Assembly (NCBI GenBank): GCA_036785375.1
Contig: JAWMAR010000293.1
Location: forward strand, 1,922,001-1,986,000
DNA length: 64,000 nucleotides
Direction of reading: 5' to 3'
DNA from: Leucoraja ocellata
Lineage: Eukaryota
Shown: positions 1,776 to 58,598 of the stretch, piece by piece
How the letters are laid out: every line of letters begins with the position of its first letter
Numbering within the stretch: position 1 is the stretch's first letter
The notes under the pieces: generated by a model
Told to the model about the DNA's origin: nothing
What the model saw: only the letters and a program-made list of their open reading frames with translations
Databases searched by the model: none
Translations under genes and position numbers: made by a program

Positions 1776-1946
1776 CATTGTTATACTGGACAATGTGACT
1801 GGTGCGGCATTTGGCGGCAGGAGGATGATATTCATGCGAGCGCTGACACTGGCAGTGATCCCTGACGGCTTGATTGTGCAGCGAGGAGCCGATGTCACTT
1901 CCAACTTGAGCAGCAAAGGAGCTTCCTTGGCTGATGATGTTGGGGT
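1776..1946 (-). CDS. PLTP: PLTP coding exon, 171 bp (TPTSSAKEAPLLLKLEVTSAPRCTIKPSG...LSSITM)
   Basis: caccaag|ACC...ATG|gtaagg; PRCTIKPSG motif. The acceptor position is less certain than the donor. Confidence 0.92.
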
Positions 1947-4900
1947 CTTGGTGTCAGGGATTGTGAAAAGAAGTAGACAGTTAAAAGATTCAAGCATTTT
2001 CTGCATCAAAATGTAGTTTGGTTGCATCTCATTACAATAGGCGTTGTTAAGGAATTCATTTCAAAATGAACCCTTTACAGCATTACAAATTACAAAATAG
2101 ATTATTTAAAGGTCATGAAACATAGAAAATAGGTACAGGAGTAGGCTATTCGGCCCTTCGAGCCTGCACCGCCATTCAATAAGATCATGGCTGATCATCC
2201 AACTCAGTATCCCGTACCTACCTTCTCTCCATACCCCCTGATCCCTCTAGCCACAAGGGCCACATCTAACTCCCTCTTAAATATAGCCAATGAATAACTA
2301 TGGTGTTTCGCTTTGTTATTAAACTATGTATTCTGACAAGGGGGATAGGTAATCTATTGCATTTAATGTAACCATATGGAGGATTATTTGTACCAGTCCC
2401 ATTACTGGACAAACAGATATTTCCTCCTAAAACACATTTTGCCAGACTGAGCCAGGATAGTCAGATTTTGGCACAAATTCTCTCTGGCAACTATTTCTCT
2501 CTCTGTTCTCAGCAAATGTCATGAGCCACACTGTTCACAATCTAGATATATTCGAGTCCAAAACAAAAATATGACACCGTGTTCACAAGATCAACAAGAT
2601 TGTCTACTTTCACTTCCATAACACTGCCCTTCTCCACTCCTGGCTCATCCTATTTGCTCGTGAAACCCTCAACCAGGCATCTTTTACTCATGGACTAGTC
2701 ACTTCCAAAAAAACGGGCCAAATATTGAAGAGCTAGAAAACAGACAACAGTCCCCACAAAGACTTCCGTGCACAGCCTCCTAACCTCGTTAATGTGTTTG
2801 GTGCTCCATTTGTGAACTGCTCTATGTCGGCAAGACTAAGAGCAGATTAGGTGACTGATTTGCAGAGCCCTTGTGCTCTGTTCGCAACGACTACCCCAAG
2901 CTCCCGGTTGTAAGCTTTTCAATTCCCCTCCCCATTCCCACGCTGTCTTGGCCATCTCACTGCCAGGCCGAGGCCAAACACAAACTACAGGAACAATAGC
3001 TCGGATTCTGCCTGGGTAGTCTGCAACTAAATGATATAAACAAGAGATTTTTCAATTTACCTCCCGAGTTCCCTCTTTCTCTCCTGATCCTCCCATTTGT
3101 GTTCCCTTTCCTATTTAGCTCCCTGTACAATTTCCCTCCTCCTCCTTCTTCCATCCATCTATTACCCACACATTTCACCCACTGAATCTCCTCCACCAAC
3201 TGGCTACATGTGCTCATCACCTTTCCGTTAAAGGATTCGCATTATCACCTTCCTTACTATTTAGATTACAGCACGTGTACCATTGGTGTCTTCATTGTCA
3301 CCCTCCAGCCTGTCCCCACCCTCCCCCAATCAGACTCCAACTGCCCCTTTTGTTTCTTGTTTGTTTCCACCTATCACCCACCTGCCTTGGGCACAATGAC
3401 AGCTTCAAGTTTCCCAGTCAACTACATTTACACCTTGAATGTTCAAACCCTCTACATCTCCATCCGACTCCCAAACTGTCTGTGAATACTTTGCTTCTTC
3501 TGCCAACAAAAGCTCAACCCACTCATCTCCTCTCTCCTTCACTGGGCAGAACCTGTCTTTAAATTCCATTCACTTCCTCCAAATCATCAGAGCCATCATG
3601 AAGAGAAAGAGGGAGAGAGAAAAGAGATGGGGAGGAGAGAATAAACAAATTGGAAATGTTGCAACAGAGAGGGGAAGGAGAAAGACAGATGTAAAGATAA
3701 TCAGAAATTAGATAGCAAGGTGGGGAAAGAAAATGAGAGAACAACAGAAAATTAGTAGAAAAGGAAGGGAGTAATAATAACATATGCCATCATATTCATA
3801 CTTACCATCAAGATGATTAATCCAAAGAATGTAGTCCTCAGTAAATAAGCAAGATCCATGGGCATCTGGTACAAATTGTCAACAGGGATTCATTAGTAGC
3901 CAACAATTTATTTCACATGAAAAATGTCTGTAATGACCATGAACCCACCTTGCTCTCAGGAATATCAGCCTTTAGTGTTCCAGCTTTATAATAAGAGTAC
4001 ATGGCAGAGTCAAAGAAGTACTCGGATAAACAGATGTACACCATGCGATCCTTGCTCTTCAAATCAGGCATACTTACAGTGTTTGGCAGTGTGTCATTTT
4101 CATTATGAAGAGGGTAGAACATTCCCTGAAAAAAATAGCCGGAACCTCTCAGTAACACTGGAGTATATGTACTCCAGGCCCACCCCATGTGGTTGACTCT
4201 TAAAACCATTTGAAGTAGCCCGTTAAGACACTGAGCTGTACCATTAACACTGCAGCTGCTATTTGGAACACCAAGCTAAAGTGATGGCGAGTCCATCAAC
4301 AATAATGTTGTGGTGCTGAAGAAGCTCTGAATACATTGTGGAACAATCAATACGTATATTCGTACATCAAACTCGCACAAAATGGTAAATCGTTCCCTAA
4401 ACTCTTCCAGTTCACTGTCGAATAAATCACATTTTATCTCTGTTCTGATTCCTATGGATATTAAAGGAGGAAACCTTTGCATTCTCACAGAGGCAGTGAA
4501 GTGATTATACAGGCATGAGTGAAATTAAAGAAAAACAAATGTGCTTATGTAAAGTGGTTTATCTTGGCTCTAAGTGGAAGCATTTCATCAACAAAAAGAA
4601 CTCCATTATAGAGAGTATTGGAACTGTTTCTCTCATGGGAATGGTGCAATCTTGTGCATCTTTTCAAGTGGATTTGTCAATGGTATTTTTTTGCTGCTTC
4701 AACATTTATTATCTGAAGTAAAGGGCAATTGAGTGGTTTTGATTTGGAAGATAAAATTAGGCAGTGAAGCTAATTTATAATGACACCAGCCAGGAATTAA
4801 GGTTTAGTGGGTGATGCTACAAGCTATTGCCATGGGGCAGTTATCCGACTTGCAAAGGATGATGACCATGGAAATGCATAACCCATTGGATTTTTCTCCC

Positions 4901-7900
4901 ATTCATTAAGAGCATGGCATACATTTAACCTCGCTGCCCCTTTTCTGCCTTTGGATTCCTTTAAAATTAAAAAAAATCTCTGATTTTCATGTAGAATGTA
5001 TGAATGTAATCAGGGACTGAGCTTCCACGCCCCTCTTCAGTAGAGAATTGTAGTTTCACCTCCCAAGGAGGGGTAGAAATCTCTTCCCATCTCTGTCCTG
5101 AGAGACTAATTCCTTACTTTAAGATTGTGACTGCTTGTTCCAGACACACCTTTACTATCTTTGCTTTCCCTCCCTCCCGAGCAGCAGAACACACCTAGGT
5201 CACCCTCCGTCTCAACAATGTTTCAAGCTGGTCATGAACAAACACCCAATCTCAGTGCAGGGCCAGATGGGGAAATTGCAAGGTTAAAAGAGGTACCCTC
5301 ATCCCAATCTTCAATGCAGTCCTGGCCCTGCCTTTCCCCAAAGGCGAGTCGCTCGGGAAAGGTCTGATAATCACAGTGAAGACATGTACTGGGCAGCAGG
5401 GAGAAAACTGTCATTATTTCTCACAGAGTCTGCACCTGCTTATGGTCCTTACCTTGAAGTCCATGTCCATCCACTCAGATTTAACATCGGGGTCACTGAG
5501 GAGGGAATAATCGATCCCTACGTCTTGATCCACTGCTGTTCGCACTTTGTGAGGAAGGCACAGACATCCACAGAGGCGCACCAATTAGTCAATATAGTGA
5601 TCATTGAAAAACATAATCAATTGTTGAACTGCAAAAGACTTTCAATCCTATAGCCTAGATCAACATCACTCAGACTTTAGAAAATCATAAACTCGCCATC
5701 AGTGTTATTACAGTGGTGTAGCTAGTAGATCTGTCATACAGCTCCAGCGACTCTAATTCAACCCTGACCTCCAGTGCTGCCCATGTGAAGTTTGCGCATA
5801 ATCCCTGTGACCATGTGGTTCTCCTCTGAGTGCTCCGGTTTCCTGTCCAAATGTCTTTTAAATATTGTTATAGTACCAGCTTCAACTACCCCGTCTGGCA
5901 GCTCATTCCATATACCCTCTGTGTGAAAGATTTGCTCAACAGGTTCCTATTAAATATTTCTCTCTTACATCTTAAACCTATGTCCTCTGGTTCTTGATTC
6001 CCTAGCTCCGGGTAAATGACTCTGTGTATCTACTCTATCTATTCCTCTCAAGATCTCGTACACCTCGACAAAATCACCCTTCATCCTGCTGCCCTCCAAG
6101 GAATAAAGTCCCAGCCCCCACCTCTCCCTATAGCTGAGGCCCTAAAATCTTGGCAACATCCTCGTAAATGTTCTTTGCACTCTTTCTAGTTGAACAGAAT
6201 CTTTCCTATAGCAGGGTGACCAAAACTGAACACAAGACTGCAAATGTGGCCTCACCAATATCTTGTACAACCGTAACATAACATCCCACCTACTATACTC
6301 CATACCCTGCCTGATGAAGGCGAATGTGCCAAAAGGCTTTTTGACCACTCTATCTACCTGTGAAGCCACTTGCCATGTAGTATGTAGCTACACTCATAAT
6401 TTCCGCTGTTCTACAACACTCCTCAGAGCCTGCCATTCACTGTGTTTGTATAGCCTCCGAGAATGTTGGATGAATTTTTTGCACGGTCCATGTATTGTAT
6501 ATATTTATTACTTGGATAAAATCTATTTTGAAATTTGCAAAAGAAAAAGGTCCTGTGCTGGTTTGACTTCCCAAAATGCAACACCTCACACTTATCTGCG
6601 TTAAACTCCATTAACCATTCCTCACCGTCTCCTTGCCCAACTGATCATGATCTCTTTTTTTGGAAACCTGCATCTGCAGTTCCCTGTGTCTCCAGATTAG
6701 AGTTAGAATCGGGAACGAGAGATTTGCAGATACTGTGCATCTAGACTGACTGGTCTAAAAAGCCGACAGCTGGCAGTGAAGCAGTCTGCAACCTGAAATC
6801 TTGTGGAAGCTTGCTGTGCAAACATAGGCTGACGCTTTCCCTCCTCTTACTTAAGTGAACAATATAATTTGTCAAAAATAGCGGAGGTTAATCTGGAGGT
6901 ATGATTCAAATTTTAGTTTAGTTTCGAGATACAGCTCGGAAACAGGCCCTTCGGACCACCGAGTCCACACCGACCAGCGATCCCCACACACTAACACTAT
7001 CCTAGGGCCAATTTTACATTTATACCAATTAACCTACAAACCTGTATGTCTTTGGAGAGTGGGAGGAAACCGAAGATCTCGGAGAAAGCCCACGCAGGTC
7101 ACGTGGAGTACGTACAAACTCCATGCACCTGTAGTCAGAATCGAGCTCAGATCTCTGCCGTTGTAAGGCAGTAGCACTACTGCTACGCATTTGTGCTGCC
7201 CTGCTGTGCCACAGTGCCGCCCTGCTGTGCCACAGTGCCACCCTGCTGTGCCACAGTGCCGCCCTGCTGTGCCACAGTGCCGCCCTGCTGTGCCACAGTG
7301 CCGCCCTGCTGTGCCACAGTGCCGCCCTGCTGTGCCACAGTGCCGCCCTGCTGTGCCACAGTGCCGCCCTGCTGTGCCACAGTGCCGCCCTGCTGTGCCA
7401 CAGTGCCGCTGTGGGATGCCATTTGTCATTGAGAGCAGTAAATCCACTGTTGGATTTCTGGAATGAAGAGATTCACCTAGCTCTGATCAGTGGTTGAGCA
7501 CTAAGATGGGGGGGGGATGTATTAGAGTCATAGAGAGGGTGGTATCAATATCTATGAGTGGTGGGTTGGAATACCTTGTCTCAGGGAATTAGGACAGACA
7601 CCCATTGACTGTGCTTTTCCCATTTCCTTTAGCTTCCTTGGCCAATTCCCTGCAATTGTCATGCACAGCAATTAATATCAATTTCCAGTGACAAACAGTA
7701 CCCTTTCTTTAAGTGGAGGGGACAAACTTTCATAGTTAACATGACTTGTTTCAAGATCTTTCCCAACTGATCGAAACAGAAACATGAAACAGAAGCATCA
7801 TAGCTTGGCCAGATGTCTCCCATTGGAACTCTGGGACAGGTGGTTGTATCCAGGAAAGCATACCTCAAGAATGCTAAGCATTTTATCCTAGAAACATGGC

Positions 7901-10900
7901 ACTCTCCTTGTAAATGCAGCTCCAAGCCCTACAATCAGGAGCCACACGTTTAACAAGGCACTTTGCATTCACTGTAAGTATCCTGTATCGGAATACCCCA
8001 CCACCCCCAACTTTCACCAAATTCCCCCAATGCGTTTAATGGTTGACGGTTTTCAATTCAAGGGTCAGCCCAGATGAGGTGGTGAGAATACTAAAAACCT
8101 CCACACAAAAAATGACACCTGCCCTTATCCTGCTCAGCCCCCACTCTTAGCGAAGGGTGGAAACACAACAGCAGTGCACAGTATGAAACAGTTCACTGCA
8201 TGGACATGTACTCACCTGGTACGGTCGCCAGCAGCGAGTTCAGCAGCACCAGCCCTGAGTGCTGTAAGGCTGGGCAAATCTACAAAAGTAGAGAAAGGGA
8301 ATAATTGAGACAGAAAAGACAATGTTGCTCCTCAATTATTTTCAAAAGTTCAAGCTAACCACAGGAATCCAATGTCCATAGTGCAATATCTCAGTTTTTA
8401 AGAAGGAACTGCAGATGCTGGAAAATCGAAGGTACACAAAAATGCTGTAGAAACTCAGCGGGTGCAGCGGCATCTATGGAGCAAAGGAAATGGGCAACGT
8501 TTCGGCCCGAAACGTTGCCTATTTCCTTCGCTCCATAGATGCTGCTGCACCCGCTGAGTTTCTCCAGCATTTTTGTGTACGTGCAATATCTCAGAATGCT
8601 TTCAATCGATGTATGCTGAGAACGCCCATTGGGGTTAGAATATTAGAATATACACCACATGTTTCGGTGCCTGCTGATCCCTCTGGTGATGTTGACTGTG
8701 TTGTCTTTTATTCAATTACGTTTAAGTAATTTCACCCGTATATCATCATTTGTGTTACCCATAGAGATCCCTATTTAACTGCTGATGTTTGGCTTGGATT
8801 TTTTTCCCCATGCAGAGCTTGTTGTTCAGGACTTTCTCATGCTGAACCTTATACTCTTAGTCATGGAGTCATAGAGTGATACAGTGTGGAAAAAGGCCAT
8901 TCGGCCCAACTTGACCACACCGGCCAAAATATTCTAGCTACACTGGTCCCACCTGCCAGCATTTCATCCATATCCCTACAAACCTGTCCTATCCATGTGC
9001 CTGTCTAACTGTTTCTTAAATGTTGGGATAGTCCTTGCCTCTGTTACCTCCTCTGGCAGCTTGTTCCATACACCCACCACCCTTTGTGTGAAACAGTTAC
9101 CCCTCAGATTAAATATTTCCCCATCACCTTAAACCTATGTCCTCTGGTCCTCGATTCACCTACTCTGGGCAAGAGACTCTCTGCATTCGTATTTATCAGA
9201 GTTCTAGTAAAAGCCTTCTTGAGTTTAACTTACTTCCGGCTCCTATGTGTTCCCTGTGCTTGGGTCTACTCATCTCTCAGCATTGTTACACCAGGATAAA
9301 TCCACACACTTGACAATCTATATTCAAAGAATAACCAAACCCTAATACTGACATTGTGTGCCATGTGTGATTATCTTAGATCATGAGGTCACGTCTTCAA
9401 GGAACAGCCTGGTTCCCTCAATACAACCAGCTCAGCATTACAACAAGAAGCTACATGTATTACCAGCATTCTCACTACGATTAGAGGGCATGCTTTGTGC
9501 TGGGATAGAATATTTGCAGGTGAACATTGTTCACAGCTCACGCATACCTTTTCTTTTCCAGGAGGTGAACTCTGAGCCATAGTTAACAGCCCAGAGCAGC
9601 TACAGCAGTCACTTGCATTAATGTAGAAGATGGTGCCACGATCAAATAGTCAGTCCACACAGAATACCTGGTCACAAATTGGTACCCGGAGAAAAATATT
9701 TAATTAGAAGGGCACATTTGTTGAGGGGAGACACTAGGTCATGGTTGACTGGAAGAGTATGGAGTGGAGTGGAGTGGAGTGGAGATCAGCTCCACTTACA
9801 TTGAGTCAAGTCAGTGGTGTCCCGGATGGAAATGAGTGCCTCGAGGGGAAATATTAGGACAAGGTTCTTGGCTTTGTACTCTTCCATGCCCTGAGTCAAG
9901 ACCAACCATCAGTTTAGTGGGGACGCAGGGGATTCCAAGTACGTATTCCTGCAAAATTGCTGTAGAACCAGGAAGTTTTCACCTCCATATGGAATGATTT
10001 GCGATGGAAATAACACGGAATCTTGATGCCTGATGGAGCAGTTAACTACCCAACTGCAGCCCACTCTCAATGCTCTGAACACTGAAGAAATTCAATAGAA
10101 AATGGCACAGATGAACATTACCCCATCCACCACCCTCAACATTTGTTCTGTCCACCACTAGTGCACCTTGGCTGTTGTATGTACCACCTACAAAATGCAA
10201 TTATGCACCAATGCTATTCCAATAGCACCTCCCAAATCCATGATGTCCACCATCAAGAGAGACATTGAGCCCAGGGGAACACTATCAAATAGAGGCTTTG
10301 CTTCAAGTGATAGACCATACTGATCAGGACATAAATTATTCATTTGTAGTGGCACCTGCTGGTGCCTTGGGGTAGTCGAACCCTCGGATTGGCTACCCCA
10401 GTCACGTGGGTGCGGGGTGGAGGTTTTGCGCACTTTTGATCGAGCCCATTCATTCGGAGCACCACCCTTGTGGCAACAACATCGTTAATTTAGCCGTCTC
10501 ACAGACTCGCGTTGTTCTTTATTTAACCGTTTGCAATAAATCTCGTTAAATCAACTCGCGGTCTCGACTCCACTAAACATTCATCCTTATTTGGTCTAAA
10601 CCCTAGCAACTGTTCTGTGGGATACTTTCATTAGGAGGACTGCAGTGTTCAAAAAGACAGCTCACCACCAGTCACTTAAGAATGGATAATGTATTTACTT
10701 CCTGAAAAATGAATAAAAACCGTTGCACATGTATATAGAATGCGAATTACCTGCTGGTTTATTAGGAAGCGCAAGCCGGTTGTGAGAATTGTTGCGAATA
10801 TTTCATAAAAGCCCCTGTAAAAAAAGTAGCATAAACTTAGGAAATCACCTAGAACATTAGAGAGAAGCTAATGGTTTGCGGAGAACCACCATGCATATGT

Positions 10901-13900
10901 AATCAATATTTGGCATCAACCAGCAAGAAGATTGTATTTGGAATTAAAACCAGACCTAAGGCTGAGCCCAAGCATCCACTCATCCTGCAGTGATAGCAGC
11001 CCTAAGGTGCAGAGATACAAGGATTTCTTCACATAGTCATAGAGACATACAACATGGAAATAGGCCCTTCAGTCTAACGTACCCCATACATTTCCTGTTG
11101 GATTCCTTGGGGACTTATAGTGACGTTTCTGTTCATCGCCAGATTGGATTGAATGGCACTGTTTTCTTGTGAGCAAATTGCAACTGAATTTTATCAATGG
11201 AAGTGGTAAATTGTGAAAATGCTGTGAAATTGCATAGCTTGTAGAATGTGGCCAGGCACTTTGGCCATGGTGAACACATGTATAACATTTCACAAGTAGA
11301 GTAACTGTCCCCTTTCCCCAGAGTAATGTTTGTTTGGGACTTCTACAGTTAACATTTGGGCATAATTTTCTGCTTTAGATACGCAATTGGGAGATGCTGT
11401 CAGCAAAATTGGGAAAGTTATCTTTCCATGGGTATGAAGTTTGGGTGATTTCCCTAATGCAGCAAAGTGAGAAATGGCATATAGATTAGTAACAGCAGCC
11501 AATGTAGTGAGTGTCGTGGATGTTTCCATTTGACATTTTATTACATCTGTGTAATGAGACTGTTGTTCCCATAATTAAACCTATTCTTAAGCACACCATG
11601 TCTCATAATAAAATAAATCTTTACCGAAAGTTCCCATTAAACTTTGCTTTCATTCCGGCAATGGAGGCTTTGCAGGACACCTTGTTTATCATCATCTGCC
11701 CAAATTCACCCTTGGACAGATGTAGTACAGTCCAGATGTTGACTCCTTCAGCAGAGGCATTAATCTGGCCATAGTCCTTCCTGAAAAAAAAATGTTTCAG
11801 TAGTGGCGGATCAAACTCCAATCATGCACTGTATCCAATCATGCCCCCCTGGTTATAGCCCTTCACCAACGCAGTACCTGAATACCTTGCCCCTACCCAA
11901 TCCGGTTGGCCATTATCAGACCCTTGACCAACTTCCTGGTCACCACTCGATCCTTGACCAGTATTAACTCTTATCCTACATTGACACCAACAGCTCACTG
12001 ACACATTACTCATAAGGTCATAGTTAGGCGCAGAATTAGGCCATTCAGTCCATCATCTATTCCGTCATTCAATCATGGCTGATCTATCTCTCCATCCTAA
12101 CCCCATTCTCCTGCCTTCTCCCCATTACCCCTGATATCCATACTAATCAAGAATCTATATATCTCTGCCTTAAAAATATCCATTGACGCAGCTTCCACAG
12201 CCCTATGTGGCAAATAATTTCACAGATTCACCTTCCTAAAGGAATGTCCTTTAATTCTGAAGCTATTACTTCTAGTCCTAGACTCTCTCACTAGTGGAAA
12301 CATCCTCTCCACATTCACTCTACCCAAGCCTTTTACTATTTGTATTTTTCAATGAGGTCCCCCTCATTCTTCTGAACTAGTGAGTGCAGGTCCAGTGCCG
12401 ACAAACGCTCATCATAGGTTAACCCACTCATTCCTGTGATCATTCTTGTAAACTTTCTCTGGATCAGCTCCAGAGCCAGCACATCCTTCCTCAGATATGG
12501 TGCCCAAAATTGCTCACAATATTCCAAATGCGGCATTACCTGTGCCTTATGGACCCTCAACATTACATCCCTGTTTTTGTACTCTAGCCCTCTTGATATA
12601 GATGCTAGCATTGCGTTTGCCTTCTTTACTACTGATTCAACTTTCAGATTAACTTTTTGGGAATCCTGCACCAGCACTCCCAAGTCCCTTTGTACCTCCG
12701 ATTTCTGGATTCTCTCCCCATTTAGAAAATAGTCTACTTTTTTATTGCTATCCATCATTATCCAAATTCTCAATATCCCCAACCCTTAAAAAAGTCTGAA
12801 TCTAGTAGCCTTGGTGATGCCTCTAATCATATCCTACACTACAATCCCATGTTACCTCATTCTATTCCCAGTATATCGGTTGTTGAAAGATTACTTGCCT
12901 CCTCGCCCACCTACTCATCCACGTGACCACGGATAATACCATAACCAGTCCCCCATTACTTGACTTTGGTCACACCGCTAATCCCCGCCACCCTATTCTC
13001 AAACACTGATCACACCGCTTCCCATGGTTACCACATCCACGGCACCACAGGTCACACCCCCCCCCCCCCCCTTCCCCCAATCCCCACCATCATCTGCAGC
13101 CCCAGTGACAACATCTACCTCACTGATCACAGATACAACTAAATGAGCTCCATTAGCAATCCAGATTTCAATCCTCAATATTATTCATTAGAAAGTGTGA
13201 AATCAAACCGTCTGCACATAATACAATTTCACCCGCAAGAACATGACATTGCCAAGATGAGAGGCAGTTTCAAGGATAAACATGTGAACTGCCAGCAGTG
13301 CCAGCACTGACTAACTGTTGGTCTACCACTAACTGTTGGTCAACTACCAACTGTTCATCAGAACTGTGTTCGCTTCTTATTCAGGAGTATTTGTGGGTGT
13401 TGAATGGGAGTCCTATCCACTGAAGGAGAGCAATTTATGATGCCTGCACTTTGAGAAGACTTTGCAATGTAAGATATTTGACAAGGTTTCAGATGGGAGG
13501 CTGGACCAGAACATTAAGGCATGTGGGTTCCGAGGCAAACTGGAAAATTGAATCCAAAATTGGCTTGGTGAAAGGAGGTGGAGAGTAGAGTGCTGGGATC
13601 AGTGGTGGGATCAGTGCTGGGATCAGTGGTGGGATCAGTGCTGGGATCAGTGGTGGGATCAGTGGTGGGATCAAATCAGAATTTAATCCCAACAAGTGTG
13701 AGATGATGCATTTGTGTAAGTCAAATATGGGTAGGACATATACAATAAATAGCAGGATGTCACAGAATGTTGATGAACAGTGAGACTTAGAGATCCAAAT
13801 CTAAGTTTCCCTGAAAGTGGTAACACAGTGTAGTGAAGATGGTATATGGCAGACTAAAGAAGGGTCCTGACCCCTTAACATCACCTATCCATGTTCTCCA

Positions 13901-16900
13901 GAGATGCTGCCTGTCCTGCTAAGCACTTCCTGTCCTATTTTATGGCATATGGCATGTTTTGTTTTCATAGTTTGTAAGCATAGAATGTAAGATTTTGTTG
14001 CACAGCTGGAGGAGGTAGAAGGATCAGATGTAATCACCACGTTATACATGTAAGAGATATTTAGACATAAATAGACAAGGCACGGGAAGATATCCTATTG
14101 TGGGCAAATCAAATTAAGTGTAGATGAGCCGAGTGTCACTGAAATTCCTGGCAGTAATCACATTTATCCACCGGGAGGACTTTAAACTCACTTTTTGTAG
14201 AATGTATAGCAGGAACAGTTTTTGTGCTGAACAACTCAGACTCTATGATAAGCTCCAGCATGGCCTGATAGGGATAAATGTCCATTTCTCTGCTGTACAT
14301 TTGACGTAAAGTGAGTTTAAACCACCCCCAGGTGAATATATGTGATACCTGCAAGGAATTTCAGCGACACTGGGGTCTCAAAACCTGGCCAATGATGCAA
14401 GCGGGTGAAGCACAGGTGCTGGGATATGTAACACAGCGTGACAGCACAGATCATGCAGGACACGGTAGGAATAAAAGGCACTCACAACAGCCAGTACATC
14501 ATGTCCCTCTGGAAGGTGATGCTGATGGATGAGTTAATTGTTTCAAAGAGTAGACCAGTGCCATTTTGGAAGCCAAGGGTGGCACCAGATAAATCCAGTT
14601 CATTGATATTCACCCTGTAGGATATCAAAAAGTACAAATCTCAGTGTTCCTGGTCCACAAGCAAGCAGCAGCAAGGTCCAAGAAGATACTTACCCATTAA
14701 TGGAATACTGGAATGGACCCTGTTTCCCAGATACATCCGAAATTGAGATATTTTCAAGTTCTTCAGCAACAAATTTCAATCCTTCATACTGAACTATAAA
14801 AAACAAAAGAATATTCAGACTTGGTTTTGTGCAGCACGGCTTGAATTTCCAATAATATCTGCCCTGACTTGTGTTCAAATTTGTATCAATTGCAATTGTC
14901 TAGGAAATGAGTCAGCCCACCGTGTCATTCAGTGTCTATATACTGTATATATTAAATGTGGGTTTGTGTATATATATGTTTGCATGCATGTGATTGTATC
15001 ATGTGTGTGTGTGTGTGAGATGTGATTGTGCATGTGAATGCACAGAAGTGTGAAGTATGCATATATGTGTTTTGTGACAATGTGTCGGTGTGCATATGTG
15101 TGTGAGTGCATGAGTGATGTGATTGAATGTGTGTGAAAGTGTGCACACCTATTGGAGTTGTGTGTGCAAGTCCCCTGCAGGTTACAACAGGTCACCCCAT
15201 TTCTGAGAACTACTTATGACCAGAACAGTTCACGTCAAAAATATTGTGGACTGCCAATGTACTTAAATAAAAACAAAAGCCATCCAAGGGCAATGTGTAG
15301 TTGAACCAGGAGATTCAACTTAACCATTCAGATATTGCCACATGGCAGAACATGTCCACCACCCCGCAGTAGCTGTAAAATCCGTCATGCCAGTCTCCCA
15401 AACACTGAGTCGTATATACGGGCCATGCAAGTCAGGCATTTGTAACCTGGAAAGGACCCGGATATGAAAATAAAGAACTTGCATTTGTGAATCTCCATTC
15501 ATGACCTCAAGCTACCCAAACATTTCCAACCGGCACACTCCTCAGTGATGTTGGTTCACAGTGAACGATAGGGACCTGGGGAGTGCTGTAGAACTGAGGG
15601 ACTTGGGGGTGCAGGTACTTAATTCCCAGGATGGCATCGCAGGTGGACAGAGTGGTGAAGAAGACTTTTGGCATGCTGTGCTTCATCAATAAGGGCATTG
15701 AGTACTGAAGTTTGGACACTATAATTGTAGTAGTACAGAATCATTATGATCCACTCTTGTGTTCAGCTTGGTCACCCTGCTATAGGAAAGATGCAATTAA
15801 GCTAGAAAGAGTTCAGAACAGATTTATGAGGATGTTGCCAGGATTTGATGGACTGAATTATAGGAAGGGATTGGGTGGGCTGAGACTTCATTCTTGGAAC
15901 GTCAGAGATTGTAAAGGGGTGGTCTTATGGAGGTATATAAAATCATGAGGGTCATTGATAGGGTGAATGCACGCAGCATTTTCCCAGGGTAGGGGAATCA
16001 AAAACTAGAGGGTATAGGTTTAAGATGAGAGAAGAAAGATTTAATAGGAATCTGACGGGGAACTTTTTGTCATAGAAGGTAGAAGGTGATACATGTAGGG
16101 AACAAGCTGCCAGAGGAAGTGGTGGATGCAGGTGGAATAACAATATTTAAAAGATATTTGGACATACATGGAACGGAGAGGTTTTAGAGAGATATGCATA
16201 AAATGTGAGCAAATGGGATTAGCGTAGATGGGCATCTTGGTTGGCATGGATGCGTTGGTCCGAAGGACCTGTTTCCAATGCTGCTTGACTCCATGTGTGC
16301 CCACTGCCATTATATGAGAAAGGTAGTTTATATGTTTTTTGTTACCTGCTCCTGGAATGAGGCTATCTCTGGCAAATCTCCATCTGTTCAGGAGAGATGG
16401 TGATAAAGCTCTGGAAAGTGTCACACTCCTCATGGCGAAGCTGTTACCAAATTACTGCCAAAATATAGATCCAACGATTATGTAGAAGCAACAATCGACT
16501 TCCAAGACGTGTGAGAGTTTTTTGGCTGGCAGTGTTTCCATGTGCCTGCTGCCAGGTGTCAGAAGGAGCCGGGCTGATTAATGCATTTAATTTAATCTTT
16601 ATTTGTGACTGCTCTGACTCCAGGCAGTGGAAAGTTTCCTTTTTAACTCTGTTCAACGTGTACTCACAAAGCTGTGTATATTGGAGTGTGCATGTGCTGT
16701 TGTGTGTAGATACACGGATTCTGTACAAGTACATCGCTTTTTGTTCTGCTGCGTCTTTGTGTGGATGTGTGCAAGGTCAGTTTATGTGATTGCATATGTG
16801 CAGAGGGGTGGAGGCAATGCAGAGATTGCATGTGTGTGTGGAAGCCTTTAGCTTGAAATGCATTGACAATGCGTGTGTGTTTTTCACCAGTTTTTCACCA

Positions 16901-17518
16901 GTGTTTTTCACCAGTGCACAGAGCAGTTGTGTGTGATAGAGCACACGGATAGTATAAATGCATTGATAGTGTCTGACATAAATAGATGGGCAACATATGT
17001 GTATGTCACTATTGGTTATAATTGGTGTAAAAGATCTGTGTGCACACGAGCCTGTAGGTATTTGTATATAGGGCATGCTTCTATCAAGCGTGTGTGTGTG
17101 AATGGATAGGTTCTGATATATGGTTATGTCCCTTTAGTCTGTTGAGCTGAAACACAATCGATGTTATGTATAGATATCCACCCTGTGAGATACGGTGAGT
17201 TCCCTCCTTCATCACTTGCAGCTACTGGCCCACAAACAATGATAGGCTGACAGTGAAGTGTATCAGCTCCTCCCCTCCCCCCCTCCCCCCCCTCTCCACC
17301 TCCCCCCCTCCCCACCAAACATTCAGAAAGTTGCACTTTCATTGTTCGCAAAGTAAGCTGTGTGTTTGTTTGGTGAGAAGCGACCCGGGAATGTGAGGCT
17401 GCGGGATCTTACTCAGCGTCAGGCCTCTCTCAGTGATGCGAACACGGCAGCCAGGGTTGGAGCTTGTTGTGGTGCTCAGTCCCATCAGGAGCAACAAGCC
17501 AGTGCTCCAGCGAGCCAT
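1776..17518 (-). CDS. PLTP: Phospholipid transfer protein (BPI/LBP/PLTP family), 5' ten coding exons, 3'-partial: join of 17413-17518, 14694-14793, 14486-14614, 11625-11780, 10751-10814, 8216-8279, 5453-5544, 3949-4125, 3806-3865, 1776-1946
   Basis: Spliced translation MARWSTGLLLLMGLSTTTSSNPGCRVRITERGLTLI...INASAEGVNI...VSCKAS...ICPAL...GIDYSL...RMVYICLSEYFFDSAM...APRCTIKPSGITASV...LSSITM matches recalled vertebrate PLTP motifs. All introns are GT-AG with compatible phases; exon sizes 100/129/156/64/64/92/177/60 agree with the human gene as I recall it; the N-domain Cys pair (VSC, ICP) is kept. Confidence 0.97.
2116..2295 (-). mobile_element. Young CR1 LINE 3' end
   Basis: (catagaaa)n tail; almost identical to copies at 52790-52967 and 61866-62110. 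Confidence 0.88.
2770..3060 (+). mobile_element. Penelope-like element, degraded GIY-YIG endonuclease fragment
   Basis: Reads LYVGKTKSRLGD*FAE...; homologous to the fragment at 62110-62345. Confidence 0.7.
3806..3865 (-). CDS. PLTP: PLTP coding exon, 60 bp (MPMDLAYLLRTTFFGLIILM)
   Basis: gtaccag|ATG...ATG|gtaagt; preceded by an 83-bp intron; similar to human VPHDLDMLLRATYFGSIVLL. Confidence 0.94.
3949..4125 (-). CDS. PLTP: PLTP coding exon, 177 bp (GMFYPLHNENDTLPN...RMVYICLSEYFFDSAMYSYYKAG...ESK)
   Basis: tttttcag|GGA...AAG|gtgggt; RMVY..SE.FFDSA motif. Confidence 0.97.
5453..5544 (-). CDS. PLTP: PLTP coding exon, 92 bp (RTAVDQDVGIDYSLLSDPDVKSEWMDMDFK)
   Basis: cacaaag|TG...AAG|gtaagg; GIDYSL motif. 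Confidence 0.96.
5708..5845 (+). mobile_element. tRNA-derived SINE head (HE1-like)
   Basis: cagtggtgtagctagtag (A box)...ttcaaccctgacc (B box)...tgtgaagtttgc...gtgaccatgtgg...tgctccggtttcct. Confidence 0.7.
5846..6645 (-). mobile_element. CR1 LINE 3' fragment (end of RT)
   Basis: ORFs read LYKILVRPHLQSCVQFWSP..LERVQR.FTRMLP and MEFNADKCEVLHFG. Confidence 0.9.
6910..7192 (-). mobile_element. HE1-like SINE, nearly full length
   Basis: (tttag)n tail, CR1-like 3' segment, core GFLRDLRFPPT and tRNA-like head; same family at 21800, 27112, 46660, 61420. Confidence 0.85.
7193..7410. repeat. 21-bp tandem repeat, 10 copies (ccgccctgctgtgccacagtg)
   Basis: Seen directly; near-perfect copies. Confidence 0.97.
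8216..8279 (-). CDS. PLTP: PLTP coding exon, 64 bp (ICPALQHSGLVLLNSLLATVP)
   Basis: tttgtag|ATT...G|gtgagt; similar to human ICPVLYHAGTVLLNSLLDTVP. Confidence 0.96.
8400..8580. repeat. About 150-bp palindrome made of two head-to-head Penelope-type terminal repeats
   Basis: gtacacaaaaatgctg...gcaacgtttcgg-c-ccgaaacgttgc...cagcatttttgtgtac (8432-8580). Confidence 0.9.
8858..9190 (-). mobile_element. CR1 LINE 3' end
   Basis: agtcatagag tail; matches 17915-18100, 22495-22850 and 35130-35367. Confidence 0.85.
10345..10577 (+). mobile_element. Short solo LTR (Gypsy-like), 233 bp
   Basis: CATT duplication at 10341-10344 and 10578-10581; termini TGTAGTGG...CCACTAAA (one mismatch); AATAAA at 10535; CpG-rich. 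Confidence 0.75.
10751..10814 (-). CDS. PLTP: PLTP coding exon, 64 bp (GFYEIFATILTTGLRFLINQQ)
   Basis: tttacag|G...CAG|gtaatt; similar to human GMRFLLNQQ. Confidence 0.95.
11625..11780 (-). CDS. PLTP: PLTP coding exon, 156 bp (KDYGQINASAEGVNI...VSCKASIAGMKAKFNGNFR)
   Basis: tttttcag|G...CG|gtaaag; INASAEGV motif. Confidence 0.96.
12012..12750 (-). mobile_element. CR1 LINE 3' fragment
   Basis: ORF 12336-12782: QRDLGVLV..VVKKANAML..PHLEYCEQFWAPYLRKDV. Confidence 0.92.
13435..14125 (+). mobile_element. Degraded CR1 RT fragment containing a 12-bp tandem expansion (gggatcagtggt/gct, 13590-13672)
   Basis: FDKV and EFNPNKCEMMH motifs; the repeat unit corresponds to the QGSVLG-coding segment of RT. 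Confidence 0.7.
14486..14614 (-). CDS. PLTP: PLTP coding exon, 129 bp (VNINELDLSGATLGFQNGTGLLFETINSSISITFQRDMMYWL)
   Basis: ctacag|G...TT|gtgagt; preceded by a 79-bp intron. Confidence 0.95.
14694..14793 (-). CDS. PLTP: PLTP coding exon, 100 bp (QYEGLKFVAEELENISISDVSGKQGPFQYSING)
   Basis: tttatag|TT...GG|gtaagt; similar to human KQEGLRFLEQELETI. Confidence 0.95.
15560..16295 (+). mobile_element. CR1 LINE 3' fragment
   Basis: WSPCYRKDAIKLERVQNRFMRMLPG plus 3' UTR. Confidence 0.88.
17413..17518 (-). CDS. PLTP: PLTP first coding exon (signal peptide + NPGCRVRIT); exon acceptor at 17533
   Basis: ccccgcag|GTACGTGGGGAGACG ATG GCT CGC TGG...CTG A|gtaaga; hydrophobic leader followed by the family NPG-x-RIT motif. 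Confidence 0.92.
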
Positions 17519-18489
17519 CGTCTCCCCACGTACCTGCGGGGCAAGGAACTGGCATCTTAAATATCGTCAAGCCCTATAACAACAGACACAGGCACAACAG
17601 AGAACGATCGCTGTCCCCACTGCTACTGCCCAGGCCAGCAAGTCCCGTCTCGGGAGGAGACCATTCAACCCTTCAAGCCTGTTATCCAGCAATAGGAATT
17701 AGTCACTGGAAGGGGCCACTGAGACACTCAAGTCTTTTACACAAGAATATTCAGCCCTTTGCCCTGATGGAAAGGCTTCAGATTTCAAGAGCTTGATCGA
17801 CAATGACGGATTAAATCAATAATGATCATACTGCCAGAATTGGAGGAGTGGACATTTTTCAGCGGAGTGAGACTGGGGGAAGCATAGAATGCAGCAAAGC
17901 TCTGGAGGACATACAAACGGTGGTGGGTGTATGGAACAAGCTGCCAGAGGGACTTTCCCAACATTTAACAAACAGTTGGACAGGTACATGGATAGGAGAG
18001 GTTTGGAGGGATATGGACCAAATGCGGGCTGGGACATTTGGTAGCTGGTGTGGGTAAATTGGGCTGGAGGGTCTGTTTCCACACTGTATCACTCTATGAC
18101 ACTTTGACATTGAAAATGAGACTTAAAACTACTGTTTACTATGAGTCATTGAGGGTTCAACAGGCACAGAGAAGATAGGTTAATAGGTGATGGTCAGTAT
18201 ACACAGGTGTAATGGTTTCATGGTTCAGTTAAGCAACTACAGGATGACCTTTTAAAATCTAGTCTCACCAGTGCATTCACATTTTCATTAACCTATGATG
18301 TGACCCAGATACTCTCTGTCCTCGGTCAGTGGGACATTAATACTCTCTCTCTCTCTCCTGACTCGGTGTGATAATACTGTGTGGAATGGGGGGGCTTGAA
18401 TCACACCGTGGGAACACTGAGCTCGGCCCTGTGGCGGAAACTCCCTGTTCCCGGGGAAACTGCCCAGGGCCCAACACCAGGATACTCTG

Positions 18490-19210
18490 TACTCCCTGTC
18501 CGGGTCAATGTGACCCTGGTCCTTTCTATCCCTGGTCAGTATGATCGTGATAACCCTGCCCTGTGTCAGTGTGACCCTGGTACTCCCTATGTGGGTCAGT
18601 GTGACCCTGGTCCTTTCTATCCTGTGTCAGTGTGACCCAGTACTTTCTACCTGGGTCAGTGTAACCCTGGTCTTCTGTATGTGTGTCAGTGTGACCCTGG
18701 TCCTTTCTACCCTGTGTCAGTGTGACCCAGTACTTTCTACCTGGGTCAGTGTCACCCTGGTACTCCCTGTCATGGGTCAGTGTAACCCTGGTCCTCTGTA
18801 TGTGGGTCAGTGTGACCCTGTATTTTCTATCCCGTGTCAGTGTGACCCTGGTCCTTTCTATCCTGTGCCAGTGTGACCCAGTACTTTTTACCTGGGTCAG
18901 TGTAACCCTGGTACTCCCTGTCCCGGGTCAGTGTGATCCTGGTCCTCTCTGTGTGTCAGTATGACCTAAACTTTCTATCCTGGGTCAGAGTGACCCTGGT
19001 ACTCCCTGTCCTGGGTCAGTGTAACCCTGGTCCTCTGTATGTGGGTCAGCGTGACCCTGTATTTTCTATCCTGGGTCAGTGTGACCCTGGTCCTCTCTAT
19101 GTGTGTCAGTGTGACCCTGGTTCCTTCTATCCTGTGCCAGTGTGACCCTATACTTTTTACCTGGGTCAGTGTAACCCTGGTACTCCCTGTCCCGGGTCAG
19201 AGTGAACCTA
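18490..19210. repeat. Minisatellite, about 24 units of 30-31 bp, core (g/t)gtcagtgtgaccc, with a partial four-unit higher-order pattern
   Basis: Seen directly. Confidence 0.95.
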
Positions 19211-19779
19211 GTTCTGTCTGCCCCGGGCGAGTGACTCTGCTGTGTCCTTGCCTTTCTCCAACAGCCTATTATTGAACGTTGAGCTGATTGTTCAAAGCTT
19301 TGTACAATGTACCAAATAACATTATCACGCTGTCTCTCTACTCTGCCGCTGCTGGAACCAATTTGTGGCCGAGTGCCCTCAATAAACCCGTTATCCTGGT
19401 GTTGAGCCCCAGGCAGTTTCCACGGGAACAGGCAGTCTCCTCTACAAGGCCGGGCTCAGTGTTCCCAAGGTGTGATTCAAGCCCCCCCCCCCCCCCCATT
19501 CCACACAGCCCCTCACTCATCACACCACTGCCCGATTGTAAACGCACCCCACAAAATACAGCCGGAGAATGGGTTTGAAAATCATACTTATCACAGTGAA
19601 CAGTGTCAGTTCCTTCTCCTTCGAAAAGGCTCTGTTGTGAGAGGATTGCCGATTCAGGCAGCTCTGCAAATGAACAGCAGGGGCTGATCTCTCAATTGAA
19701 AACACAAGAAATTGTTGATCATCGCCCCCCCCCCTCTCCCCAGTCTTGGCCGGACGTTCACTAAACCCGAGCTGTTTGA

Positions 19780-19792
19780 TGACCTTTGACCC
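19780..19792 (-). promoter_or_regulatory. Perfect DR1 nuclear-receptor element GGGTCA-A-AGGTCA upstream of PLTP
   Basis: Plus strand tgacctttgaccc in unique sequence 2.26 kb upstream of the PLTP ATG; function is inferred. Confidence 0.55.
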
Positions 19793-20885
19793 TTCCCCTC
19801 CCTCCCCATTCCTCCTCTGTTTGGTTGTCAGAACAAATGACATCAAATCAACCCATTTTTCAGTCAACACTGCAGTGTTACTGTTGCCCTGTGTACCGCG
19901 GAGTGCACTCACCACAGGGCGGGGAGGCTACTGCTGGAATAAAAAGGCCGATTGTTCTGCTGAATGTCGTCACACTGCAGCGGTCGGTACAGCAATGTTG
20001 TGCCAGTTCACACACACACAGAGTTCTCCGTGGGAGGCTGGGTGCAGAACACGTCAACAAGAGCAGTAATTGGAGAGCACGGCTGCAAAGTGGTTGATCC
20101 CGTAACCCTTGCTGTGTGTCATCCCTTGTGTGCTGGGGCCTGGCTTTGAGTTTGTGTCAGACCCCAGATGACTGTCGGGGTTCTGGCCAATGCCGGCTTC
20201 TGGTGAAGCCACAGGTTCTTCAGGGACCCAGTGCCAGTGGCCGGTGTATTGTCAATTCTGATCGGAAGTTTTTGTTACTTGACTCTCCCGAAACAGTCCA
20301 CACTTGCTTTCCTGACTGTGGGTGAGTCCTTTATGGACTCCCCTTCCTCACTAATCCAAAAGCAAGCAGTCCTCATTACTCAACTCAATCAGCTGGCTGC
20401 TCTCATTTCCAGTATGTGTAATTTCTCACTCATGGCGAACGCTGCTAGTGATCTCTCAACAGCACAAGTACAGTGAGGCACCTGGTTACGATGCATCCTG
20501 GCTGTGAATGGGAACTCTTCCCGTCCGTCCACTGACACCTTCACACCCTTCTGTATAAATGGATTCAAACAGCCTGGAAATGGTGCCCGTAAGTTTAAAA
20601 GGAGCAGGGTAAGAGAGATCCAGAGAGTTAAAGGAGTGTGGGAAGCATATTACCGGTGTAAAAGGAATGAATGAAACAATCCCTGTGAGTACAAAGAGTG
20701 TGGAAACACAGACCTAGTGAGTAAAACGAGTGTGGAACACAGACCTGGCGAGTAAAATGGATACAGGACACACATTGGGTGCGTGGAATGTGGAGGCAGG
20801 AGTGGTGGTGGAAGCAGATACGATTGTGGGTTTTAGACAGGCACGCGGATATGTAGGAAACGGAAGGATCTGGATTTTGGGATTA

Positions 20886-54223: not shown

Positions 54224-57200
54224 TTATTATTATTAAACTTTATTTCAGACTCAAGGTGCAGACAAGAGACAACATTACATAAAATACATTGCATATAAAA
54301 CACTATAAAATACATATAGTGCATAAATTACTTATGAGCATCATAAAATATACAAAAGCACAATACATGATTTAAAATCCAGAATTAAAAGAGAGGTCAG
54401 TATCCTACGACGAGACAATACCAATGTCTCCACAACTGGCATTAGTGTAGTGTTATACCTTATGTTTGGTAAGACCAAGATAATTATATTTTCAGAGTCA
54501 TTAATCCTGCAAATAAATGTATACATATGATTTCTTAGGATAGCTTCTAAAGTACTGACTCCTGCAGCCACAAACATTTCACCAGCACTACACCATCTAG
54601 GCTTCCTTAGCAGTGTTCTCATTGCATCATTATAGGCCACCTTTAGTCTCTGTGAACTTGTCTTTCTGTAGTTAGACCACAGGTGTGCAGTATTGAGTGA
54701 TGCACAATATGCTCTAAACAGAGACATCTTCACCACATCTGTACACGCACCAAACTTACGTAAGAGAATATTCACCTGTACATACATCATCTGGCGTTGC
54801 CTATAAATATCCTCATCATCTGTAATTTGTTCTGTAATAAAATGTCCAAGATATTTTACCTTATTACAGACACTAAGATTATTGTCAGACAATTTAAAAT
54901 CAGGACATTTTAGACATTTACCCCCTTTGGTTCTGCAGATCATAACAGCACTCTTACCAGCATTATATTTGATATCATGTTCTACACCATACACAGAACA
55001 TATAGTAAGGAGCTGCTGGAGACCAGCGCTAGGTGGACTAAAGACCAGAAGATCATCTGCATACATAATATGGTTCACTACGGTATTACAAATCATACAC
55101 CCAGTATTACAGGTTTTCAATTGCTTGGACAGATCATCAATATAAAGATTAAAAATGACTAGGGACAAAATCCCCCCCTTGTCTGACACCATTGCTAACC
55201 CCAAATGGGGCTGACACCCTATGGCCCCATTTTACTTGCATAATCTGATGGGCACACCAGTAAGCCAGAATTCTCACAATGTATTTAGGCACCCCTCTTC
55301 GCCTCAATTTAACAAACAACTTTCTATGATTAACACGATCAAAGGCTTTGGAAGCATCAATAAAGCACATAATAATTGATGAGTGTTTACCTCTATATTT
55401 GTTTACAATCTCCTTTAGGGCATATATACACGTCAGTGCCATGTTTAGCTTTAAAACCAAGCTGGTTATCTGTGGAGTTAACAAACTCATTTAATCTATC
55501 CAGCAGAATTATTTCTAGGATTTTTGACAACATGCTGGCTAAAGCTATGGGCCTGTAATTATTTAGGCTGCCTACTTTACCAGCTATGTCCTTAATAACC
55601 GGCACTAGCAGAACAGACAACATTGAGTCTGGTAACAAACCATGAATCATAAAGCCAGTAAAAGGGCTTTCTCACGGTGCGACCTGAAGCAAGACTTAAC
55701 AAGACTTAACATCGTGGGAACCTCCTGCGATAACAGTACGGCATTCATGGACCACCGAGGATCTCCGTGGCGCTAACGGCAGGTAGTCGTGTAACTTGTT
55801 AAGGTCGGGACAAAATTCAAACATTTTTGAATTTCTTCAAGAGTGACTTGAGCAGCATTGCAACATTGTATGAACGCAGATGCCAGTGCGATATCCGTAA
55901 TGACTCTTGCGGGTACCGTGGGAACTCCTGCGAACGGTAATATGGGTTGAGCACAACACCGGCTGAAAGGAGGCCATCGAGAAGCAGATGTACGCCTTTG
56001 AAAATTTTTTGGCATTGGCTTTTTTAAATGTTTTATGTAATTTATGTTTTTATGTGTCTTGAGTTCTATGTGCAAATCCTTTTCAGTTCCAGGTATCAGA
56101 GCGTTGGAAGCAGGATGCCAGAGGCCACTCAGCCACTCTTCGGGCCAGTGCAGGGGTGCGAGCGGATGGCCAGCGTAGACCACTGGCAGCAACGTTACCC
56201 CACCCACGTGGCCGATGTGGCCCTGGTCTGCCGGCAGCTGTCCGAGCGATGGCTACAGGTCAGTGCCCCCCTCCCCTCCCTCTCCAACGCTCACACACCC
56301 CCCCCCCCCCGTCACTCCCCTCCCCTCCCCATTCCATCACTCACGCCCCCCCCCCCATCACTCAATCCCCATCAACGTGCCTTGATGTGTCAGCAGCTGT
56401 CCGAGCACCACCTGTGGGTGTAGAGCTCCAACCCCCGATCCCCTCCCTCTCCCCCACCCGGGAGAGAGGGAGGGGAGGTGGGTGGGAGTGGGGAAGTGAG
56501 CGAGGGGGAGAGATGGGAGGGGGGGGGGGGTAGAGGGAGAACAGTTGACTGTAAACTATCACAGCTGGAATCTTGCTTTGCTTTACTGTGCGCTCCCTCT
56601 GCTGATGCGGAATACCTCCCTACTGGACTCCTCGGTCAGTGGGGTTTTCCACTGGTCTGGCAATGAGCAGATGACCAAGTTCCAGATGGCTTGCACCATG
56701 GCAGACGCCTTCAGACTCCCCAATGCCCACCTGCGCCCAGTAAGTGTGTGTGGGTGGGGGGGCGGGGGGCAGGCTAGAGTGGCTGAGTGGCCTCTGGCAT
56801 CCTGCTTCCAACGCTCTGATACCTGGAACTGAAAAGGATTTGCACATAGAACTCAAGACACATAAAAACATAAAACATTTAAAAAAGCCAATGCCAAAAA
56901 CTTTTCAAAGGCGTACATCTGCTTCTCGATGGCCACCTTTCAGCTGGTGTTGTGCTCAACCCATATTACCGTTCGCAGGAGTTCCCACGGTACCCGCAAC
57001 AGTCATTACGGATATCGCACTGGCATCTGCGTTCATACAATGTTGCAACGCTGCTCAAGTCACTCTTGGAGAAATTCAAAAATGTTTGAATTTTCTCCCG
57101 ACCTTAACAAGTTACACGACTACCTGCCGTTAGCGCCACGGAGGTCCTCGGTGGTCCACAAATGCCGTACTGTTATCGCAGGAGGTTCCCACGATGTTAA

Positions 57201-58039
57201 GTCTTGCTTCAGGTCGCACCGTGAGAAAGAGCCATAAAACAAATAACAAGGAGAGGAGTTATCCTCATACTCGCATACTTAAGATGTTCAGCAGAAATAT
57301 GATCTAAACCACTAAACCAGTTGGACCGCTTGTTCATGGCATGATACACCTCATGTGACATAATCATCATTGAATCATTACTCTCAATATTGTCCACCCT
57401 ATAGAAAATCACCTTGGACACAGTTGAATAAAGTACTATAATGTTGTCACCATAACTCCGCAATATTAGCTGTTCCGGAGATTCCATCTACAGTGCATGG
57501 TAGAGATGTTTTGCAGCTGTTAAGAGCACTCACTTCCCAAAAATCAGTATCGTTGTTACTTAGCAGCTTCATAGCCATGGATTCAGCCCTCATAGCTTGC
57601 TCATTTTTACAGATGAAGCAAACGGCATACTTATTTCTTGCAAAAGTGAGAGCTTATGCAAGATATAACACAGGCCCCTGTCTGGGCCTACCTGCCATAG
57701 CCCATAATTTAGTGGCTTCACGGGCTTCAGCATGACACTCAGCTACATATTTACTCCAGCCAGGCCTGATGTTATGTGTCTTATTTTTATGGTTGCAGTA
57801 GGGCTTACTGCCTACATATAAAGCACTTACTATATCATTATACATGGAGCAGATATCTCTCCTATGCTTCATATCCTTACAATTAACATTAATACACATT
57901 ATTGCATCTTTAGGTAGATGAATATTGCTTAAGGAGTTATCTGTATGAGCATAATAGGCTAAGATGTCTTCCCTTGTGAGGGTTGACCAGTCCAGTTTTT
58001 CTGTGTTAAAGCTATTTCCATCTCTGGATACCACAGGTA
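54224..58039 (-). mobile_element. RTEX-like LINE ORF2 remnant, frameshifted and split by a foldback element
   Basis: NNYRPIAL, QLGFK..HGT, CFIDASKAFDRVNH, GVRQGG, YADDL, KYLG, KVAYN motifs; aataaa plus (taa)n tail at about 54225-54245. Clade assignment is tentative. Confidence 0.85.
55662..57234. mobile_element. Non-autonomous foldback element with about 470-bp inverted arms (PIF/Harbinger-like)
   Basis: Arms 55662-56139 and 56776-57234 are reverse complements; TAA duplication at 55659-55661 and 57235-57237; the host RT frame (ICF-TGF-MIHG) rejoins across it. Confidence 0.9.
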
Positions 58040-58598
58040 CTGGGATCGAAATGAACAGTTGCCCGGTTGCCAATGGCCACCTAAAGTCCTGCCGGGCAAC
58101 CTAAAAGCCGTGTCATTTTTGCCCGGCTTAGCACCCCTCTCTATTTCGCTCTCTGTGCCACTCTCCGTCTCCACCCGCCATTCGTGTCCGGGCTGCCATG
58201 TCTCCGCTCTCCAGCCACTCATCCACTGGCACGGCCAGCCGCCTTGCACATGTGCACTGCCATGGCCAGCACATCATCGGCCGCTCTGCACATGCGCACT
58301 GCCACGGCCACTGGTAGGCACCAGGTACTTTCTCCCTCCCTTTGCATTGTGGGAGATTTGACCGCCATTGCTGTCCGGTCGCCACGACCCTTGAAACCCA
58401 ACGCAGAATCACTCCCTGGAGCTGGAGTAACTCTTGCTTCTTGGTTTCCTGGTCCTCCAAAAATATTCCAAATGGAATTTTAAATGGACGTGGTGGAGGG
58501 TTAAACATAGTAGAGGGTTAAACATAGTACTCTGTAAACAATGTTATAAACGAGAATACAAAACTGTGTATTTATATATAAATATATAACCATATAAA

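Follow-up and report, generated by a model that had tools for sequence, protein, structure and literature searches.

The first intron of the PLTP gene in the 64,000-nucleotide stretch of skate DNA analysed here (the window) carries a 30-bp minisatellite of 24 units, nearly all of which contain a perfect or near-perfect estrogen response element (ERE), and we judge the chances to be about even that this array acts as an estrogen-responsive intronic enhancer of PLTP. This reading draws on the site content (22 of the 24 units lie within one mismatch of the ERE, the densest ERE cluster found in our genome searches) and on the location within the first intron, close to the 5′ end of the gene. It is further supported by the presence of the array in related species, by half-sites with less variation than is seen elsewhere in the unit, and by the low divergence from a duplicate copy, as well as by an ESR1-like exon and vitellogenin EREs in the same genome, a low chance of finding such an array near a transcription start site (TSS), and links between PLTP and estrogen in mouse and trout.

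The array has the anatomy of a minisatellite, with head-to-tail units in the 10–100 bp range at a single locus (Table 1). Its contiguous units, 28–31 bp long, each consist of a 15-bp palindromic core and a pyrimidine-rich linker of 13–16 bp, and Tandem Repeats Finder detected higher-order periods of about 90 and 239 bp. The core is an IR3-type ERE, i.e., the GGTCAnnnTGACC palindrome with its 3-bp spacer, which was perfect in 6 of the 24 units, had one mismatch in 16, and two mismatches in 2. The one-mismatch units comprised 7 TGTCA, 5 TAACC, 2 TGATC, 1 TCACC, and 1 TGAAC variants. An earlier sequence-only reading of this DNA, which had counted about 24 units with many TGTCA/TAACC variants, was thus confirmed, and the six perfect EREs, all flanked by GGGTCAnnnTGACCC, were found close to where it had placed them. 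The window contains no perfect EREs beyond these six (mean of 0.07 in shuffled sequences, 0 of 100 shuffles reaching 6), although this test overstates the excess, since copied units are not independent of each other. Of the 23 window sites within one mismatch of the ERE, 22 fall inside the array, which holds about 40 near-consensus half-sites. The same reading had also suggested a 30–31 bp spacing close to three helical turns. The actual spacing of 28–31 bp corresponds to 2.7–2.95 turns at 10.5 bp per turn and the perfect sites are scattered, with gaps of 91, 211, 178, 61, and 30 bp between successive ones and one adjacent pair only, so that helical phasing provides no evidence here.

Transcript contigs define the position of the array within the gene. 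Protein P0001 places PLTP on the minus strand with its ATG at 17518, and the exon translated from 3949–4125 matches elasmobranch PLTP (10 of 11 candidates; sawfish, 83%). In contigs from X5 and X7, two runs guessed to be RNA that stem from two studies and two organisms, 17413–17533 is spliced to 19585–19640/19665. As these contigs join the flanking exons across the array, the array sits in PLTP intron 1, and an upstream promoter element is ruled out. The earlier placement of the array 1.0–1.7 kb upstream of the ATG accordingly holds for the distance (984–1690 bp), but the array lies within the intron, past the non-coding exon. It is located about 430–1160 bp from the 5′ ends of the transcript contigs, ends that cannot prove a start site. 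Upstream of these ends, we found a single DR1 motif, an HNF4/PPAR-RXR/COUP-type site. None of the sequence differences listed for X17 and X20 falls within it, in a list that omits 22 rows of substitutions and 6 of indels. The X5 contig carries 19 extra letters past 19665, at an acceptor-like site. These found no placement in the window, in 104 further loci, or in C293:1882001-2216000 or C293:1645001-1775000, and they hint either at an artefact or at a possible further exon far upstream. The raw-read runs X21 and X24 (6% and 1% of reads sampled) hardly covered the ATG exon, and a PF01273 search of the genome gave one match, on C80, missing the PLTP locus. Elsewhere in the window, LINE-type reverse-transcriptase/endonuclease fragments were recognized by eye at 54341–55671 and 57209–58100, together with an inverted duplicated stretch near 55700–57200.

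Table 1. Features at and around the PLTP array, in window coordinates.
Feature	Position	Strand	Basis and remarks
Further PLTP coding exons	1776..14797	-	8 tblastn pieces; gene end about 19 kb beyond window start
PLTP exon with ATG (17518) and signal peptide	17413..17533	-	Protein mapping, transcript contigs
PLTP intron 1, holds the array	17534..19587	-	GT at 19587, AG at 17534; X5 and X7 contigs join flanking exons
Decayed unit-like sequence beyond left inverted-repeat arm	18296..18376	.	Best core match 11/15 at 18323; direct reading
Left arm of locus-specific inverted repeat, abuts unit 1	18377..18484	+	Arm matches 4 places, two per copy of the locus
30-bp minisatellite, 24 units	18502..19208	.	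Tandem Repeats Finder (end ~19209) and unit splitting
Perfect ERE, unit 1	18503..18515	.	Motif scan
Perfect ERE, unit 4	18594..18606	.	Motif scan
Perfect ERE, unit 11	18805..18817	.	Motif scan
Perfect ERE, unit 17	18983..18995	.	Motif scan
Perfect ERE, unit 19	19044..19056	.	Motif scan
Perfect ERE, unit 20	19074..19086	.	Motif scan
Three GRE/PRE/ARE-like linkers, one mismatch off consensus	18910..19193 (18910, 18998, 19179)	.	Copies of one linker variant; weak, post hoc
Right arm of inverted repeat	19392..19508	-	97 nt at 89% and 18 nt at 100%
Non-coding exon 5′ of ATG exon	19588..19665 (end approximate)	-	X7 contig starts near 19640, X5 matches to 19665
DR1, only one in window	19780..19792	-	Motif scan; 115–140 bp 5′ of contig ends

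The PLTP unit is confined to this locus. Genome searches found a 19-mer of the unit only at the array and at C293:1.725 Mb, and the same two places were the only ones with the variant-pair pattern and with perfect ERE pairs 27–33 bp apart. A common dispersed minisatellite family is thereby ruled out for this unit, and the check for the same array at many unrelated loci returned only the array and its probable haplotype duplicate. That duplicate lies within an inverted copy of at least 125 kb (alignments of at least 400 bp), where C293:1645001-1775000 matches 1891806-2025753, which includes the window, at about 97–99% identity; one of the copies has a 200-N gap. Over 15.6 kb, the duplicate differs from the window by 1.5% substitutions, and its array likewise contains 24 units, with 5 substitutions and no indel. 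The vitellogenin genes and several other loci are doubled in the assembly as well, and P0001 mixes residues from both PLTP copies, which makes uncollapsed haplotypes likelier than paralogues and disfavors an array-bearing second PLTP gene. Both haplotypes are probably present in the assembly. Across the array and promoter (18502–20165), 8 of 1664 sites differ between the copies where about 24 were expected, which could also reflect a low-divergence block. The proposal that repeat number tunes the gene did not fare well: both assembled copies have 24 units, and a difference appears only between species, with about 16 units in organism C. We therefore regard a tuning of PLTP by copy number within the species as quite unlikely.

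A comparison of the orthologous PLTP region, suggested in the sequence-only reading, located the array at the matching place in two related species. In organism C, an 854-nt contig extends from one arm to the other and holds 441 nt in place of the 678 nt of the window, a shortfall of about 8 units. The depth of this contig (19.8, versus 18.6 in the flank and 23.8 expected if collapsed) argues against an assembly collapse. For organism D, the left arm is linked to unit-like sequence by a contig of low depth. The flanks of the related species differ by about 3%, so the conservation is close-range only. Within the array, parsimony on a tree of the 24 units (2 gappy columns and decayed edge units left out) assigned 8 changes to the 10 ERE columns, 6 to the 3 spacer columns, and 33 to the 14 linker columns, a deficit in the ERE columns relative to the 17 spacer/linker columns (8 versus 39 changes; binomial P = 0.002). 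Across tests, P values for half-site constraint ranged from 0.004 to 0.07 (0.004 given six or more perfect units, 0.047 by minimum changes), the ERE mask tied for the lowest of 29 placements, and all indels fell in linkers, with none in the core. These data, from tests that treat non-independent unit copies as data, suggest lower variability in the half-sites than in the remainder of the unit. The support that they lend to constraint is modest, because duplication and conversion shape the units and two half-site variants have come to occupy 9 and 5 of them.

The strongest alternative, which we consider a real though lesser possibility, is a neutral minisatellite in which the hairpin-forming palindrome arose by chance or itself caused the amplification, and which may bind ER in vitro without any selected effect on PLTP. 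Simple expectation speaks for it. At the observed density of 30–79 minisatellites per Mb, 2–5 perfect-ERE arrays are expected by chance per genome, about the number seen, which is 4 (PLTP, C5, C76, and C1578). For the 1.5 kb around any TSS, the expectation falls to about 0.05–0.13 such arrays per genome, a rough figure that favors the enhancer reading (both estimates assume a 2.5-Gb genome and 20,000 TSS). An ERE array somewhere in the genome is thus unremarkable, and it is the density and the position of the PLTP array that constitute the signal. The warning that tcagtgt-type minisatellites may be common in this genome was justified to the extent that unrelated repeats with ERE-like cores occur on C5, C76, C1578, and C2246, but it does not apply to the PLTP unit itself. 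The C5 repeat (C5:3880419-3880935) is an unrelated minisatellite with 18 copies of a 29-bp unit, holding 3 perfect and 6 one-mismatch EREs; that on C76 (~7690320-7690630) has 11 copies of a 27-bp unit with 1 perfect and 3 one-mismatch EREs; and that at C1578:110117-110526 has 2 perfect and 3 one-mismatch EREs. At C2246:69414-70287, 33 one-mismatch cores are separated by (CA)n; nearly all are identical to the PLTP variant, sharing the 15-bp core of seven PLTP-type variants. The recurrence of the core GTCAG(T/A)GTGACC in the C5 and C2246 arrays, with linkers that differ from those of the PLTP unit and with no gene identified near either array, also fits a neutral origin. Among 150 of the 222 open reading frames of at least 75 amino acids around the C2246 and C1578 arrays, a Pfam scan found Ig domains near C1578 and otherwise transposon pieces; exons with immunoglobulin domains are close to both the C1578 repeat (by Pfam) and the C76 repeat (by eye). 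The C5 array is located about 550 kb 3′ of an ESR1-like first exon on the same contig.

Across the genome, perfect 15-bp EREs numbered 811 against 705 for controls (50 of the matches were listed), and ERE pairs were not enriched relative to reversed-pattern controls (2 versus 1, 3 versus 22, and 39 versus 57). The 39 matches of the last pattern, a perfect plus a near ERE, comprised 14 at PLTP, 3 at C5, and 22 others, 16 of which were inspected: one was an array (C76), five formed a group in which the two that were translated proved to be Tc1 transposase copies, and the rest were single sites. In the coding region of some Tc1-like transposase copies (C35, C158), a perfect ERE and one with a single mismatch are spaced 24 bp apart.

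The DNA structure at the locus also speaks for the neutral alternative. The array strand folds as single-stranded DNA into unit hairpins (z = −5.75; 20 shuffles), and an inverted repeat, overlooked in the first reading, encloses the array. Its arm matched 4 places only, two per copy of the PLTP locus, in a genome DNA search in which common words may be skipped, and the arm motif had 0 matches in a metagenome scan. Such confinement indicates a local inverted duplication rather than a transposon end, and a MITE or foldback transposon is ruled out, as the arm showed no dispersed multi-copy family in that search. The local inverted duplication points to template switching. In the PLTP pre-mRNA, base pairing between the two arms could also place the array in a loop. 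Species about 3% apart in their flanks can, moreover, share a neutral array. What a neutral origin accommodates less easily is the location of the array close to the 5′ end of a lipoprotein gene that mouse and trout data connect to estrogen, half-sites that are less variable than the 3-bp spacer or the linker, and the few differences between the two copies over array and promoter.

The hormone machinery that the enhancer reading calls for is at least partly visible in this genome. An estrogen receptor gene is represented by the ESR1-like first exon on C5 (PF02159 match, E = 1e-31), while a search of the genome with the ESR1_C profile came back blank. A divergent vitellogenin pair has one perfect ERE per gene, 3.4–4.6 kb 5′ of the first matched exon, and no array; two other vitellogenin-like regions had no perfect ERE in 20 kb each. 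Tandem vitellogenin genes (C126:5103474, 5117359 and C2011) were seen with one perfect ERE each 5′ of the first matched exon, and between the two divergent genes there is a 30-bp minisatellite that has no EREs. According to the literature, the Pltp mRNA level in mouse liver follows the oestrous cycle and depends on liver ERalpha, for which the authors suggest indirect control (PMC4835581), trout gonad pltp is up to 6-fold higher under ethynylestradiol (PMC4574709), and elasmobranch vitellogenin is driven by estradiol, with progesterone antagonizing vitellogenesis (PMC4081646). Other papers describe a single level of plasma PLTP activity for wild-type mature hens, immature hens, and roosters (PMC3521959), ER binding at 51 of 2310 perfect human EREs in MCF7 cells (PMC2853111), and conserved EREs that can be inert (PMC2568806). 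The literature searched, which misses most subscription journals, yielded no report of a natural ERE minisatellite and, among the elasmobranch papers listed, no mention of PLTP.

The case for an enhancer is correspondingly weakened by an array count at the chance level, by ERE pairs that are not enriched, and by the perfect state of only 6 of the 24 units. It is also weakened by the spread of two half-site variants, by conservation tests that use non-independent copies, and by vitellogenin genes that here have single EREs instead of arrays. The literature adds that most perfect EREs are unbound in a given cell, that control in mouse may be indirect, and that chicken plasma activity is described at a single level.

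Two further alternatives assign the array to other receptors. ERR and COUP-TF bind EREs, and such GGTCA half-site/IR3 receptors might mainly bind the array and set basal or repressed PLTP levels independently of estrogen, to which the roughly 40 half-sites beside a DR1 promoter would lend themselves. We consider this improbable, as the conserved geometry, an IR3 palindrome with no indel in the core, is the ER arrangement. Least probable is a composite hormone unit, with progesterone/androgen/glucocorticoid-type linker sites interspersed among the EREs and progesterone opposing estrogen at PLTP: three linkers lie one mismatch from the GRE/PRE/ARE consensus (RGnACAnnnTGTnCY), and the progesterone antagonism in elasmobranchs (PMC4081646) would fit, but the three are copies of one variant in the most variable part of the unit, the motif was noticed post hoc, and of 14 such matches in the window, 4 lie in or beside the array and 10 elsewhere.

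If the array is an estrogen-responsive enhancer, slippage and block duplication would have multiplied an ancestral single ERE in intron 1, several units would be occupied by ER dimers carrying estradiol, which would raise PLTP transcription, and this ER input would add to a promoter driven through DR1, probably in liver. That the array serves yolk-lipoprotein supply is a weaker and more tentative proposition. The boldest version appears unlikely to us, namely that a 24-site ER array, kept in skates or rays with a length that differs between species, turns PLTP into a vitellogenesis gene under strong estrogen induction in liver, with progesterone-type linker sites as a brake. To our knowledge, few direct estrogen targets are known for yolk-lipid supply in cartilaginous fishes, and a functional array would make PLTP such a target. 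It would also represent a natural counterpart of laboratory multimerised ERE reporters, and the contrast of about 16 versus 24 units between species offers a ready test of whether repeat number scales the hormone response.

The vitellogenin EREs of the skate genome share the GGTCAnnnTGACC consensus with the PLTP array, as do the classical Xenopus and chicken vitellogenin EREs; the skate vitellogenin genes differ in having a single perfect site each and no tandem repeat. By anatomy, the PLTP array resembles two human repeats, in CDH2 and TRIB3, and tandem repeats of steroid-receptor sites are already known from CDH2. The CDH2 VNTR (PMC12064536) also lies in intron 1, combines a steroid-receptor palindrome and a linker in each of about 24 units, and was amplified at one locus, just as every PLTP unit holds a perfect or near-perfect steroid-receptor site. 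It differs in its ARE/GRE site, its 22-bp unit, its restriction to humans, its demonstrated single-copy ancestor, its range of 22–24 copies between people, and its demonstrated receptor binding, whereas the PLTP array has an ERE in a 30-bp unit and occurs in three species. The 33-bp TRIB3 VNTR with C/EBP-ATF sites (PMC7425993) is likewise a promoter-proximal unit of ~30 bp that multiplies one site, but it has 1–5 copies, lies upstream of the TSS, carries a non-hormone site, and has a copy number shown to set expression. Last, the ER-bound EREs supplied by repeats (PMC2853111), mostly Alu elements and one simple repeat, likewise come from repeated DNA, and several imperfect EREs can cooperate. 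Those EREs are dispersed, with one or two sites per repeat, whereas the PLTP locus presents them as a head-to-tail array of 24.
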